From NCBI GenBank assembly GCA_963765895.1, contig CAVXZB010000032.1, positions 13,015 through 77,014 of the forward strand: a DNA stretch of 64,000 nt, in the 5' to 3' direction. The stretch's first letter is position 1. Each line of letters begins with the position of its first letter. The notes under the pieces were generated by a model. The model searched no databases, was not told the DNA's origin, and saw nothing but the letters and a program-made list of their open reading frames with translations. Positions 10,656-16,970 of this stretch are shown here, one piece after another. Position numbers and translations under genes: made by a program. Origin of the DNA: an uncultured Nitrososphaeraceae archaeon (lineage in GTDB: Archaea > Thermoproteota > Nitrososphaeria > Nitrososphaerales > Nitrososphaeraceae).

Positions 10656-12722
10656 TTATTGAATAATTATATCCTTAAATATTTTCTCATTTCTTATGTT
10701 GTCAAAGTCTTTTTCCAGCTTCGCTAATTCTCGATATTTCGGCCCGCCTATTCTAATTGCCTGAATTAAATCCGACATACCTTCCTTGAAACGCCCTATT
10801 TTAACTTTCGAACATGCTCTGTTGTAAAATGGAACAGCATCAATTGGAGATTCAAGGTAATTTTGCACCTCTATAGCATTATCGTAACTTTGTATAGCAC
10901 TGTTGTAATCTCCAAGTTTAGTATAAGCTAAACCTCTGTTATACCATGCATCATAATACTGAGGCCTAATCTTGATAGTCTCATCATAAGATTTTATTGC
11001 TTCACTGTATCTACCTAATTCATAAAACGCCAGACCTCTGTTATACCATGCAAAAGGATAGTCAGCCCTTATCTTTATGGAGGTATCGTAACTTTGTATA
11101 GCACTGTTGTAATCTCCAAGTTTAGCATAAGCTAAACCTCTGTTATTCCATGCAACAATATATTTAGGATCTACTCCAATAGATTCATCATAGTATTGAA
11201 CAGCTTCCTTGTAATTGCCTAATTCATCAAGGATTTTACCTTTGTTATATAATGCTTCTAGGAAATTTGGATTTAGATCAAGAGCTTTGTCGCAGTTTTC
11301 TAGAGCTTTGTCATATTTCTTCAGCTTATAATATGTAATTGCAATAATCATACCGAATAGCTTAGCCTTTTTGTCATCAGACAGATAAACTGGAATCTCT
11401 TTGATCGTATCTTCGACTATATTGAGAGGCACAGAGCTAATGAGTGGGATTGTGTACAAAGTCTCTATAACTGAAGCTGCTAATTCTTCATTGTTAAGGT
11501 TTAATATCAAATCCACTGCTTTCTTAATGTATCCTTTATTTTTAAGAAGCTTTCTTTTGTCGTTTGGATCATATAAATATGAAAGCAGCTCAATATCCCA
11601 TTTAGGGTGAATCGTCTTCCATCCTATGACGGGTTGAGAATATAGGGTTGCACCTTCAAGATCAAGAGCATAACTTAAAAGGTCCATATCTTCTAACAGT
11701 TCTTCAGATATTGGCAAGCCTGCAATATCTAATAATGAACAGACAAGCATAGTTGTTATCTTCATTTCATAAGCCTCTTCAGATTGCTCTGCATCACTAA
11801 GATAATTCTCATATCTTCTTTCGACATCGCTTCTTAATCCCTTTCCAAAAACAGAGAACTTGACCATTAAAGGATGTCCTTTTGCTGCATCATTGTAGAT
11901 TTTTTCAGAAATTAATTGATATGCATACTCTTCTGACCAAGCATTCAAAGGAGTTCTTATTTGCCGGATTAAATGCTCTATGTTACCATACCGTTTGATG
12001 AAGGCTTTAGTTTCTTCCTTGGTATAGGTTGGCAATTTGAATCTGAAAGTTGGTCTTGCTCTAAATTTTCTTATTGATTCTCTGTAAATTCCTTCTTTTA
12101 CCTTTCCCAGTCTATCATTAACATACCAATCAAATTCTGGCAGCCCGGCGGTTAAGACGAATCTTACACTGGCATGTGATTCATAATTTGACAGCTCATC
12201 CATAACGTAAAAAATTGCGGCAGTTCTTTCACTATGAACGTCATCTACGGCAACCAAGACGTTATTATTATTATTCAAAAAGTTTTCGATGAAATGTATA
12301 ATCTCTGTGCCATTTGTAAGATCTGAATCACCAAAATTATATAGTATTTTAAATCCTTTTTCAAAGTACTCGCATATAATTTCCATTAGAATAGTACTTT
12401 TAGAAGTGCCCATTTCACCTACTAACAATACCTGATGATGATTTTCGATTTTCGTCTTTATTTGATCCACAATGCTTCTTCGAAATTCATAATGTTCCTT
12501 AATCGATGATAACTTGAATGAAAACCCCTCTTTCCAATCATCAAAGTCTTGATCTGTAGCCTTATAATCGTCAAAGTAAGTCGGTTTGAGTAAGTTCAAT
12601 CCAAAGCTTCTCGCTTCATTGGCTAGACCAATTACAACATCTCCGCCGATGTGAATGTTTTTTCCAATAAATATTCCCTTACCACTAACGTCGCCTGTCT
12701 GAATACGATCACCAGTAGACAT
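10656..12722 (-). CDS. STAND-like P-loop NTPase with C-terminal TPR repeats and a short G/I-rich N-terminal motif (NLR-like)
   Basis: Walker A-like GEMGTSKST, Walker B VLVAVDDVH, GHPL motif and about 6 TPRs (AWYNRGLAY..LG.Y..AI..YD). Confidence 0.85.
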   Translation of the reverse strand: MSTGDRIQTGDVSGKGIFIGKNIHIGGDVVIGLANEARSFGLNLLKPTYFDDYKATDQDFDDWKEGFSFKLSSIKEHYEFRRSIVDQIKTKIENHHQVLLVGEMGTSKSTILMEIICEYFEKGFKILYNFGDSDLTNGTEIIHFIENFLNNNNNVLVAVDDVHSERTAAIFYVMDELSNYESHASVRFVLTAGLPEFDWYVNDRLGKVKEGIYRESIRKFRARPTFRFKLPTYTKEETKAFIKRYGNIEHLIRQIRTPLNAWSEEYAYQLISEKIYNDAAKGHPLMVKFSVFGKGLRSDVERRYENYLSDAEQSEEAYEMKITTMLVCSLLDIAGLPISEELLEDMDLLSYALDLEGATLYSQPVIGWKTIHPKWDIELLSYLYDPNDKRKLLKNKGYIKKAVDLILNLNNEELAASVIETLYTIPLISSVPLNIVEDTIKEIPVYLSDDKKAKLFGMIIAITYYKLKKYDKALENCDKALDLNPNFLEALYNKGKILDELGNYKEAVQYYDESIGVDPKYIVAWNNRGLAYAKLGDYNSAIQSYDTSIKIRADYPFAWYNRGLAFYELGRYSEAIKSYDETIKIRPQYYDAWYNRGLAYTKLGDYNSAIQSYDNAIEVQNYLESPIDAVPFYNRACSKVKIGRFKEGMSDLIQAIRIGGPKYRELAKLEKDFDNIRNEKIFKDIIIQ

Positions 12723-12765
12723 ATTACTATCTAAATATAATCAGTACGGATATTGAGAGAATCTG

Positions 12766-13257
12766 TCACCTACCTTGTTTTACAGCATCGACAATTGCCT
12801 CTACTCCCTTGCCTATAAGTTTGCTAAAAGGAGATAGAGGTGTAAATGTGGTAATAATTTCGGCTGCTGAGGGAAGAGCATTCAATACTTTATCAACAAG
12901 GTCAACCGTCTGTGCTTGAATATTTGTCTGTTTTACAAAATTTATCTTCTCTTTGCCTGGGGTAACATCTTCAACTTCTTTTCCAAGTCTAACAATGGCT
13001 TCTTGTATCTGGTTTGTCTTTTCTTCTGGAACTTTATATTTTTGAAATTCTTTATTGAGGTTTTCAGAAAACTTTCTTAAGCTCTCGGAATATTCACTCG
13101 GTACCTTTTCAAGTTCCTTAGTTAGATTATTAATATTTATTGTCCCGATGTCAATATCCTTACCTATAACAATGCCTTCTCCACTTACGGTGCCCACTGA
13201 AATAACATCTCCAGATGGCGATTGTTCATTAACACTATTTTTTTCATTAATTTCCAA
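12766..13257 (-). CDS. Small helical protein whose N-terminal G/I-rich motif matches the adjacent NLR-like protein
   Basis: 163 aa. GDVISVGTVSGEGIVIGKDIDIG is followed by helical sequence; the gene ends 43 bp upstream of the STAND-TPR gene. Confidence 0.75.
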   Translation of the reverse strand: MEINEKNSVNEQSPSGDVISVGTVSGEGIVIGKDIDIGTININNLTKELEKVPSEYSESLRKFSENLNKEFQKYKVPEEKTNQIQEAIVRLGKEVEDVTPGKEKINFVKQTNIQAQTVDLVDKVLNALPSAAEIITTFTPLSPFSKLIGKGVEAIVDAVKQGR

Positions 13258-14133: not shown

Positions 14134-16970
14134 TCATGCATTATTATTTTTAATCGGCTTTCCATCTGAAGTATATTTTGTTATTCTTCTTCCAAACGAT
14201 TTAGCAGGTTGCTCAGTATAGCTTGTATTGCGCTCCTTGAGGTCTTGTAGGATTGAATCTTCATAATCCAATTCTTTTGGTACCATATATCCAGACATGA
14301 GATACTTATTTTTCATTTGAATCTCTGTATTCTTTCGTAACATAATCTCTGTTCTTGATGGGTTTTCGAACTCAATAATGAAACTACAATGGAAATTTGT
14401 ATCGGCAATTTTAGTATTTGATAGATCAGCTCCTGAAAGATTTGCTCCAAAGAGAATGGTATTTGATAGATCAGCTCCTGAAAGATTAGCTCCAGAAAGA
14501 TCAGCATTTGATAGATCAGCTCCTGAAAGGTTAGCTCCAGAAAGAATAGTACGTGATGCATTAACACCCATAAGCATAGAATAGGTAAATTTCGTATTTA
14601 ACATATTTGCTCCTGAAAGGTTAGCTCCAGAAAGGTTAGCTCCAGAAAGATCAGCATTTGATAGATCAGCTCCAGAAAGGTTAGCTCCAGAAAGATTTGC
14701 ACGGATATCAGCTCCAGAAAGGTTAGCTCCAGAAAGGTTAGCTCCAGAAAGGTTAGCTCCAGAAAGATCAGCATTTGATAGATCAGCTCCTTGGAGGAAT
14801 TCAAAAGATAAATCAACAGCCCTTAATCTTTTGGGTAGCAAAGATACAGTGCGACTTGTCTTAACTATAAGATCAGATAATATTTTTTTATCAATGTTCA
14901 TTCGGTATTCCTCTAGCTTATTTAACACGTATAAAGATAACCAACGATGAATCCAAAGTTCACGATATCTAGAGAGAGGTAATTCACACATGTTCCATAG
15001 TCCTATCTTTTTTACTTCAGAGTTTTCTGTTTGAAATATTATTTCCTCATCTTCATAATATCTTTGTGCATTTCGGATAAGATTTCGTTTAATTTGTGAT
15101 GGAGATACATTCTGTTGTTGGTTCTGAGGAACTAATGATTTTATCAGAGTGGTGGTATATTCGTTTAGACTATTATTATTAGTATTAAATAATTCCAATA
15201 ATCCATCAAGAAATAGCATTGTCTCTGCAGTGGGAATACCCACATTAAGATAATTTTTCTTGTCTTCCAGTATGCTCTCAATATAGTATTCTGCAAGAAG
15301 ATATTCTTGAAAGCTTTTGTGAATAAAATCTACGGTCTTATCTGTAGTAGTCTGACCTTGTAAATAAAAGTAAGATGTAAGAATGGGTTCAAATAATTCT
15401 TTCTGTAGCGTCTTATCGAAGCCATAGATCCTAAGTTTATCTATGAGAACGCTTTGTTTTAAGATATCCGGATAGTACATCTGTCTTAATGCGGCTATCT
15501 TGCGTAAGATTTTCTTTTCTTCAGAATAAAACTGCGCGTATAATGATATTCATCAGCTACCTGTTTGTGCTTGCCTCTTATAATCGAATGAATGAATCCT
15601 TCATAGATTAATGCCCTTGTCATCTGCGTATTCACAGAATCCTTTAGCATTATTTCATCTTCTAATTTTGACTGCATCATTATGCAGAACATCCGACAAA
15701 ATAAAGGCTTACGAATTTCTTCTTCCGTTAATTTATAATTTTGAAGCTTATAAAAATTAAATTCTAATCCATATTTGTAGAAAAATTCATTTACTTGCAC
15801 TCTACTCAATGGAAGCAGTCTAATATAATGGGATATGTTGAGTTTTTCAGGTATGCCCGCTTCCAATCTTGTTGTGATTATATATTTCATATTTGGAAAC
15901 GCCTCATCGCTTTGTAACTCATCAAGAAACTCCTTTAGCTTCTCTTCATCATCGCCGTATTCGTCCAAGCCGTCACATATAAGAAGTATCTTTCTCTTCT
16001 TGCCCGCTCCTCCGGGAGCTATTAACTTTAGGATTTCATCAAGACTATGTTCCTCTTCATCTACAATTTTAAGTTTGCCTTTTAAGGGAATGAATATAGG
16101 AATGTAGCTATTTTCGTTGTTGGGATTTTCAAGAAATGTAGAAGCCATGGTAGAAGTCAAATGGATAGACAAAGAGGTTTTTCCGATTCCAAAAGGAGCA
16201 CCGAGCACGATACGACGTTTGCCTTTAGCAAGGTGGTCTAATACAAGGGATTTTGCTTTTGGCGTCGTTTCACTATCAAAATATGCTGAGAAATAGATAT
16301 CTCCCTCCTCCCACGTCTGAACACTTCTATTGACAGCGTTGTTTTCAATATAATACTCGTCCAAATACTTCCCATCTATGCGATTTGATTTGTAAATAAG
16401 TGATCTTGAATATTCAAGATGCTTTAATAGGTTTTTAGTTCGCTCTTTGTGCGCGAACATGTCTTTGAATGGTTTAATCGCTGGATCATTATCCGCCTTT
16501 TCTTCTAGAGATATATTGAAATTAAATATAAAATTGTGTATCAAATCCTTATGTTGCTCGTAACTTAAAATATTGCATAAAAGGGATCTAAACCTTGTGA
16601 TGACGGGGTGGTCTGGCAAATATGAGTTCCATCCTTCAGTATCAATAAAAGTGTCAAATAGTTCCCTCTTGATTTTTTTACTTTTAACATTGGAAAAGAC
16701 AGCAGGTTTCTTTCAAAAAACATCCGAAATTGCCAACGCAATTGGCAAAATAATAGGAAATAAAAGCTTTGAAGATAATGTCTTGGCAAGGGCCGGAAGC
16801 ATTGGCGCTTTAATTAGTATTGGTATTGGAATCTATCAACAAATTAAATACGACCTGCAGTCTAAAGAAGAGCAGGCTTTTGCTTCATTAATAAAAATCG
16901 CATTTGAAGCAGCGCACGATTCTTTACCTGAAAGAGATGAAATATCAATAAAGGATGAAGGTATATTCAT
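14134..16970 (-). pseudogene. NACHT-type NTPase fused to pentapeptide repeats; disrupted by a frameshift (~15540) and an internal inversion (16690-16952)
   Basis: Walker A APFGIGKT, Walker B LLICDGLDE, IITTR, FIHKSFQEYLLAEY and A(D/N)LS(G/N) repeats. The shifted frame YAQFYSEEKKILRKIAALRQ joins MYYPD. Confidence 0.85.
14418..14790 (-). repeat. 15-bp coding tandem repeats (pentapeptide repeats)
   Basis: Repeated gctccagaaaggtta and gcatttgatagatca units. Confidence 0.9.

Follow-up and report, generated by a model that had tools for sequence, protein, structure and literature searches.

A short N-terminal tag shared by a STAND NTPase and an adjacent small helical protein suggests an amyloid-like signaling module in a soil Nitrososphaeraceae archaeon

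Why should two adjacent genes of an archaeon, whose products resemble each other nowhere else, both begin with the same short peptide? The question is raised by a 64,000-nucleotide stretch of DNA from an uncultured Nitrososphaeraceae archaeon (assembly GCA_963765895.1, contig CAVXZB010000032.1, positions 13,015 to 77,014 of the forward strand; the whole of it is called the window below), in which a gene for a STAND NTPase with a tetratricopeptide repeat (TPR) arm lies next to a gene for a small protein composed of an N-terminal motif (the tag) and a helical domain, here named domain X. An initial annotation, made from the letters of the window, took the two for a sensor and an adjacent partner joined by a common N-terminal motif. 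We think it probable that they form a conflict or cell-death module resembling those of NOD-like receptors (NLRs), in which sensor and partner would be coupled through homotypic co-assembly of their common tag, of a beta-solenoid or amyloid-like kind.

The two 23-aa copies of the motif are identical at 15 residues and at 44 of 69 bases, and at nine of these 15 residues the codons differ. The initial annotation had placed both copies exactly and had seen that their codons diverged; its strong identity also stands, although its count of 14 falls one short. That the two proteins have nothing else visibly in common, as it also said, agrees with BLASTP, in which the small protein and the STAND protein are similar at their N-termini only (E 7e-7, against E ≥ 0.09 for other segments). 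The Smith-Waterman score of the two proteins is 79; shuffling the small protein 1000 times gives 36.3 ± 5.4 (maximum 68). The motif is also unique in the genome: a strict motif pattern applied to 43,049 six-frame open reading frames (ORFs; at least 40 aa, 4.9-Mb genome) matches only these two genes, and a hidden Markov model (HMM) of both copies, searched against the same ORFs, finds only these two, the next match having E 0.81 and 10.8 bits. We found no basis for calling the module RHIM-like, as had been proposed: neither protein matches the Pfam RHIM family (PF12721) at E ≤ 0.1, the listed matches of the small protein at E ≤ 1 do not include RHIM either, and the conserved core of the tag, GxGN[IV]IGK[ND]I, differs from the RHIM core, which we take to be a Q-containing tetrad.

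The identification of the larger protein as a STAND-TPR protein was right: it contains an nSTAND_NTPase5 P-loop domain, five TPRs, and a TPR end-of-group domain (Table 1). Its Walker A motif (GEMGTSKST) occupies residues 102–110, a Walker B-like motif reads VLVAVDD, and the alignment of STAND N-terminal parts has invariant G, S, K, and T columns at the P-loop. Neither NACHT nor NB-ARC is among the 25 Pfam families listed for the pair; the NTPase is nevertheless a STAND-class P-loop protein. The nSTAND family names presumably originate in the work of Kaur, Burroughs, Iyer, and Aravind.

The same arrangement recurs in related genomes. We searched the first 308 residues of the STAND protein against 201 genomes of the family and 6 genomes of the same genus, and found this STAND clade in 17 of the former and none of the latter (the 17 include G435, on which no claim rests). 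Thirteen STAND genes in the 30 loci read bear the tag, and nine of them adjoin a small gene of the X family: that of the window and those in loci L032, L034, L039 (where the two genes are in divergent orientation), L041, L044, L052, L055, and L063. Three others have no small X gene within ~1.5 kb (L031, L033, and L047), and the last (L043) lies at a contig end; a further pair is found on a metagenome contig (L003). In G466:C281 the order is STAND gene, small gene, STAND gene, all in one orientation, and the coordinates put 39 and 34 bp between them. The X family as such occurs in 11 of 78 genomes of the family, and the distribution of the module is patchy and accessory. In other members of the STAND clade the place of the tag is taken by unrelated N-terminal domains (~300 helical residues in L064, for example), so that the clade may be likened to NLR families with swappable outputs; domain X was not found in the N-terminal domains of the tag-less relatives searched. 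Two further observations concern tag-bearing STAND genes. The STAND protein of L044 (also read as L023; G158:C139) ends after 133 residues, just past Walker A, beside ORFs that look like transposase fragments, and this pair appears, from its sequence, to be disrupted by a mobile element. Two tag-bearing STAND genes of G466 (L033/L060 and L047/L061, on C308 and C275) are divergently adjacent to a gene for a patatin-like phospholipase; the tag was not seen at either end of the patatin-like genes, which may provide an alternative, unlinked output.

Since adjacent genes can swap segments, the similarity could be a remnant with no function, left when neighbors were partly duplicated or recombined, and in locus L026 a 16-residue run, GKNNKFSQNIGNTVNK, is indeed identical in both genes. 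A remnant does not sit well with the codon differences described above, nor with an arrangement kept in at least nine pairs whose STAND N-terminal parts share 39–62% identity, nor with conservation of the motif across a family of hundreds; we consider this explanation highly improbable.

The tags of true partners resemble each other more than those of other pairs do. We compared all small-protein N-termini with all partner N-termini in 13 pairs, summing the local alignment scores and using permuted partners as the null. For the nine STAND pairs the true partners sum to 726, and the permuted ones to 580 ± 43 (p = 0.0006); with one pair per genome the sums are 659 and 528 ± 43 (p = 0.0014). In ancient paralogs the identity would be independent of the genome, and the excess within pairs therefore indicates co-evolution or repeated homogenization. 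Several classes of tag can be distinguished: the window, L003, and L002 share the form GDxIxxGxVSGxGIxIGKxIxIG, the common class reads GDVIGxGVSGSGNIIGKNI, a SAGVIIGxNIxxGDI flavor is private to the pair of G484, and both genes of L026 have GKNNKFSQNIGNTVNK. The sensor and adjacent partner that the initial annotation saw in one genome are thus found again, with co-varying motifs, in others. Matching tags could also be a common targeting, modification, or degradation signal on proteins that are merely co-regulated or co-localized; the tag is N-terminal in both proteins, and a C4 zinc ribbon precedes it in many small X proteins (P0010, P0011, L006, L007, L026, and L039; that of L007 has almost no tag) and in one partner (L009). 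A conserved machinery would, however, need a constant signal, whereas the tag is hypervariable between genomes and matched within pairs, and it is internal in L063 and in proteins in which CHAT, the tag, and X follow one another. We regard such a signal as improbable.

The small protein is a member of an undescribed family. Among 5.8 billion clustered proteins it has only 10 relatives of nearly the same length, and all of them retain both the tag and a C-terminal helical domain with FTPLxPFSKLIxKGV at its end; a family profile built from 25 aligned sequences matches 331 cluster representatives at E ≤ 1e-3 and 235 at E ≤ 1e-10 (1.84 billion proteins searched), with lengths of mostly 140–200 aa among the 150 matches listed. 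In the 117 family members with at least 30 residues before domain X, this pre-X region is hypervariable in sequence and yet uniformly beta-prone. It is rich in G (16.4%), N (11.8%), I (15.0%), and V (10.6%), as compared with 4.3, 5.2, 8.1, and 7.0% in domain X, and poor in K, E, L, A, and P (K 4.7, P 1.1, and L 2.0%); Q is not enriched (3.2 versus 5.6%). The initial annotation had ascribed an amyloid-motif character to the tag, and this composition matches that described for bacterial amyloid signaling sequences (BASS), which are ~25 aa long, beta-prone, rich in Q, N, G, V, and I, and poor in K, P, and L (Dyrka et al., 2020, bioRxiv 10.1101/2020.01.06.895854; what is said of this paper here and below holds for part of it). 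In the AlphaFold2 model made from the family alignment, residues 1–32 of the small protein have predicted local distance difference test (pLDDT) values below 50, and domain X is confidently predicted; the tag therefore lies outside the predicted globular fold, the alternative that the motif is part of one having been raised with the original proposal. A complex prediction with two copies of STAND residues 1–45 and two of small-protein residues 1–60 (score 0.19, mark 0.32) was run without controls and counts neither way as to binding.

The glycines of the pre-X region are regularly spaced, with an autocorrelation peak at lag 6 (z = 10.3). The small-protein tag of the window can be read from its sequence as five hexads (GDVISV GTVSGE GIVIGK DIDIGT ININNL), and by eye the STAND tag can also be read as five. 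A spacing of six, four to five hexads per tag as read from the sequences, and a domain X that always follows a beta-solenoid segment would also suit a finite, closed hetero-oligomeric beta-helix (compare hexapeptide-repeat trimers and bactofilin-like caps), which would serve as a plain adaptor interface with no open-ended, prion-like templating. The small protein has no match to the Pfam hexapeptide, pentapeptide, or bactofilin families at E ≤ 1, although its glycines peak at lag 6 and true pentapeptide repeats stand at the same position in fused proteins; the one to two solenoid turns that each chain offers would be unable to fold alone. We hold a closed helix, whose computed features are those of the favored reading too, to be rather unlikely.

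Domain X was foreseen as a helical partner domain, and AlphaFold2 predicts for it a confident fold of six helices (block pLDDT 74–98 over residues 31–163). No Pfam family matches it over the cut-off, and a Foldseek comparison of the small-protein model with the PDB gives nothing at E ≤ 0.001 (best E 0.52, TM ≤ 0.39). A match to Sec10_N (26.9 bits, below the cut-off of 27.4, in 7 of 25 members) was taken as helical or coiled-coil noise, and the 25-member alignment also yields weak Pfam matches, to "Goodbye" in 5 members (best E 0.015) and to ApoLp-III in 4 (best E 4e-4). By protein-language-model features, the nearest named clusters to the small protein are those of Pfam TCAD2 (PF19971; 0.93, 184 of 256 features), and residues 40–163 alone compare with the TCAD2 clusters, which consist of ~145-aa proteins, at 0.91 (171 of 256 features). 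The PF19971 HMM has no match in the genome at E ≤ 10 and is not among the Pfam matches listed for the family alignment; the resemblance to TCAD2, unconfirmed by HMM, is a lead only.

The company that domain X keeps in larger proteins is more informative. It is fused in the order caspase (Peptidase_C14)-pentapeptide-X-TPR in the window's own genome (G000:C75; L065:2109-4602, plus strand), caspase-pentapeptide-X-MAP3K_TRAF_bd/TPR-S in G232, pentapeptide-X-caspase in P0108, CHAT-tag-X in P0051 and P0067, TIR-TPR-X in L025 and P0082, and TPR-tag-X in P0039, and it is always preceded by the tag or by a pentapeptide beta-helix. The C75 protein is the only other X-domain ORF found in its genome; its caspase part lies in an overlapping ORF in a different frame from the remainder, and in its model the pentapeptide beta-helix stops ~10 residues before X (predicted TM-score 0.50, the relative orientation of the two not being established). 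Domain X belongs to the prokaryotic caspase, TIR, and STAND conflict vocabulary, and the setting of the immune or cell-death module proposed initially fits these fusions to caspase, CHAT, and TIR, the outcome itself being what we would infer from them. A bolder version, possible but not probable, is that an archaeal "inflammasome" has the small protein as its bipartite, ASC-like adaptor: the tag would polymerize on the activated STAND protein by prion-like beta-solenoid templating, and X would be a new homotypic, death-fold-like module recruiting X-containing executioners such as the C75 caspase protein. If true, this would amount to a two-step filament relay in ammonia-oxidizing archaea, with a topology that mirrors the described amyloid signaling pairs. 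Only two of the eight genomes with a small X gene also have a fused X protein (G000 and G360), and a fixed relay from small X to fused X is therefore not supported.

In the co-assembly that we favor, the STAND protein (nSTAND5 P-loop and TPR arm) would be the sensor, and its output would be the N-terminal tag of ~25–30 Gly-, Asn-, Ile-, and Val-rich residues instead of a fused domain. Oligomerization of the STAND protein, triggered by a ligand, would bring its tags together, and the nucleus into which the gathered tags would fold would be a stacked beta-solenoid or cross-beta one. The small protein's own tag, predicted to be disordered in the monomer, would add onto this template, and the clustered X domains would fire the output, either directly or through recruited caspase or TIR proteins that contain X. 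A beta-solenoid with few rungs per chain, as in the HET-S/NWD2 type, is plausible for a tag with hexad periodicity. We infer binding, templating, and an outcome in death or defense from the distribution and character of the tag and from the partners of X.

Several points weigh against this reading. The partner-side motif is N-terminal, whereas published effector-side amyloid motifs are C-terminal (Dyrka et al., 2020), and in none of the loci examined did we find a STAND protein directly fused to X. Within the large fused proteins X has an internal position, and its sequence has no clear hydrophobic helix, which makes a HeLo- or Bell-type membrane killer less likely than an oligomerizing or adaptor module. 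As for co-variation, zinc ribbons that partners share inflate the sum for all 13 pairs (1049 versus 709 ± 66), the window's own tags rank each other second and third of 13 and not best, and the co-variation is mostly between motif classes, not individual pairs. Other points concern the pairing itself. In L063 the tag lies ~105 residues inside the STAND protein, which speaks against a strict NLR version. In L026 and L009 the tag is common to the small X protein and a coiled-coil/TPR(-NHL) neighbor that has no NTPase, and oligomerization driven by NTP is therefore not obligatory. The motif without NLR pairing, which was to count against the original proposal, is thus found in part, in at least these two loci. 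L001 (over 8.3 kb), L006, and L008 have a small gene with no motif partner in the sequence seen, and the neighbor in L005 has an alignment score at background (21). L002 (3754-4876) may be a copy of the module in decay: an in-frame stop follows residue 66 of its small gene, and the downstream ORF of 189 aa bears the tag but lacks an NTPase. Because of these exceptions, the constant feature is a tag common to the small X protein and a TPR-bearing neighbor, of which the STAND protein is the most frequent version.

TPRs are peptide-binding modules, and all motif-sharing neighbors seen bear them (STAND-TPR, coiled-coil-TPR-NHL, and zinc-ribbon-coiled-coil-TPR proteins). The tag could accordingly be a docking peptide to which the TPR arm or a third factor binds, the STAND tag being auto-inhibitory and the small protein a competing regulator, decoy, or antagonist; a shared receptor site would also yield co-variation within pairs. 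TPRs are, however, simply the commonest sensor repeat of such proteins; the tag, rich in G, N, I, and V, poor in K, E, and P, and with its glycines in hexads, fits beta-solenoid or amyloid segments, unlike typical extended TPR ligands; and a true beta-helix takes the same position before X in the fused proteins. We give docking only a small chance, and co-assembly of the tags remains the reading that we prefer.

Table 1. Features of the gene pair, with positions in the window
Feature	Position	Strand	Basis and remarks
Small-protein gene, 163 aa (N-terminal motif and helical domain X)	12766..13257	-	TTG start; stop 12766-12768; ORF list
Partner-side motif GDVISVGTVSGEGIVIGKDIDIG, residues 16-38	13144..13212	-	Kept in family alignments; beta-prone stretch to ~residue 44 (TININN)
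Helical domain X, residues 40-163; conserved C-terminal FTPLxPFSKLIGKGV	12769..13140	-	AlphaFold2, alignment
STAND NTPase gene with TPR sensor arm, 688 aa	10656..12722	-	ATG start; ORF, Pfam, and NCBIfam
Sensor-side motif GDRIQTGDVSGKGIFIGKNIHIG, residues 4-26, then GDVVIG	12645..12713	-	Sequence comparison
nSTAND_NTPase5 P-loop domain, residues 65-192	12147..12530	-	Pfam PF25199, E 1.8e-11, 44.5 bits vs cut-off 34
Five TPR repeats, ~residues 456-621	10860..11357	-	Pfam TPR_1, E 2.1e-50, 5 stretches
TPR end-of-group domain, residues 632-686	10665..10829	-	NCBIfam NF047558, E 3.8e-23, 81.2 bits vs cut-off 32

The ORF list bears out the two adjacent, co-oriented genes where the initial annotation had put them. 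The small-protein gene is the upstream one and is separated from the STAND gene by 43 bp; in front of the STAND ATG, the in-frame stop is only 6 codons away. A soil-metagenome contig (X7, 603 nt, 18 differences) spans 12453–13055 of the window and bridges both genes, so their adjacency exists in a related strain. Strain variants within the motifs are V18I, D34V, and D36N in the small protein and G26D in the STAND protein, seen in different runs and not paired. A metatranscriptome library has one contig (223 nt) that falls within the STAND gene (11605–11824), where carry-over of DNA is possible, and the same run gave no coverage of the small gene. PADLOC assigned no defense identity to the STAND protein, and its 15-bit CARF3 match for the small protein was set aside; tblastn found no match to the small protein in plasmids or phages. 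The source genome (4.9 Mb) contains an archaeal amoA gene, which agrees with the archaeal host first supposed; the host is therefore a soil ammonia-oxidizing archaeon.

A second NLR-like gene lies 0.9 kb upstream of the pair (14134–16619 of the window, minus strand). It consists of a NACHT ORF (15495–16619, minus strand; Pfam NACHT, E 2.6e-9) and, 14 bp after it and in another frame, an ORF (14134–15480, minus strand) that opens with a NACHT-associated FIHKSFQEYLLAEYY region followed by pentapeptide repeats; either a NACHT-pentapeptide gene has been frameshifted or the assembly has an indel here. The amoA gene itself (G000:C24:168102-168652; L066) matches in three consecutive pieces in different frames, and a core gene broken in this way suggests that the assembly contains indel errors; caution is therefore due before the NACHT gene and the C75 caspase gene are called pseudogenes on account of their frame breaks. 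The rest of the window (25300–64000) has lower G + C (0.31–0.37) and only 5 ORFs of at least 200 aa in 39 kb, compared with 12 in the first 25 kb; many small genes, a foreign element, or indels of the assembly might each account for this.

NLR-effector signaling by short amyloid motifs has been described in fungi and in filamentous bacteria, and in archaea, within the part of the source covered here, only in Methanosarcinales, to which the archaeal Bell domains are confined (Dyrka et al., 2020); the effector, of Bell/HeLo type or enzymatic, always bears the motif C-terminally. Our full-text search found no paper that joins amyloid signaling with Nitrososphaer or Thaumarchaeota; the list of pairs in the supplementary tables of Dyrka et al. 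(2020) was outside its coverage and might bear on this. The present locus would extend amyloid signaling to the Nitrososphaeraceae, abundant soil nitrifiers; to a different STAND clade and to partners with no NTPase; to an inverted topology; and to a new family of partner domains that has hundreds of members. To our knowledge, almost nothing is known of programmed cell death or antiviral defense in ammonia-oxidizing archaea, and a new domain tied to caspase, CHAT, and TIR proteins would provide a handle on both. Current motif-mining pipelines scan the C-termini of effectors encoded beside NACHT or NB-ARC genes and would overlook a class with N-terminal tags.

The systems of multicellular prokaryotes that use EAD and Death-like adaptors are similar in that a STAND protein and a separate component are joined by a shared homotypic module, and in their vocabulary of caspase, CHAT, TIR, pentapeptide, and TPR domains (Kaur, Burroughs, Iyer, and Aravind; PMC7159879 and PMC8195603, each drawn on in part); here the shared module is a short, disordered, beta-prone tag and not a folded helical adaptor. 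The main text of neither paper (eLife 2020 and eLife 2021, respectively) mentions Thaumarchaeota, and the word "amyloid" occurs 0 times in PMC7159879 and once, in a reference, in PMC8195603. Closer in form are the fungal HET-S/NWD2 and HRAM, sigma, and PP (RHIM-like) systems, in which an N-terminal motif of the NLR templates its match in a separately encoded helical protein, as it would here, with the tag abutting the helical domain (Dyrka et al., 2020). Unlike HET-S/NWD2, the module of the window has an inverted topology, its partner side shows no evident two-fold pseudorepeat, X has no similarity to HeLo by Foldseek, and there is no RHIM- or PP-type match.

The Bell/NLR pairs with BASS1-10 motifs share the most with it (Dyrka et al., 2020). 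In both, the genes are adjacent and mostly collinear and the distribution is patchy; a STAND-TPR receptor has, at its very N-terminus, a motif of ~25 aa that a small helical protein also carries; and the tag is enriched in G, N, V, and I, depleted in K, P, and L, and comes in several flavors on one partner domain. The differences are those of architecture, and it is by these, not by a comparison of motif logos, that we set the module apart from the BASS1-10 pairs. The partner motif (residues 16–38 of 163) lies upstream of the helical domain in all aligned members; the NTPase is nSTAND5 and not NACHT or NB-ARC, and some partners have none; unlike Bell, X is without a Pfam or PDB match and has its conserved hydrophobic segment at the C-terminus, and the small protein has no Pfam match to Bell, HeLo, HeLL, SesA, or a known enzymatic effector; and the host belongs to the Nitrososphaeraceae and not, as in the archaeal Bell systems, to the Methanosarcinales. 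The module thus lacks four features by which membership would be recognized (a C-terminal effector motif, a nucleotide-binding oligomerization domain of the NACHT or NB-ARC type, a Bell or HeLo effector, and a RHIM-type profile), and by every computational criterion that can be applied to it, it behaves like the BASS and fungal pairs.

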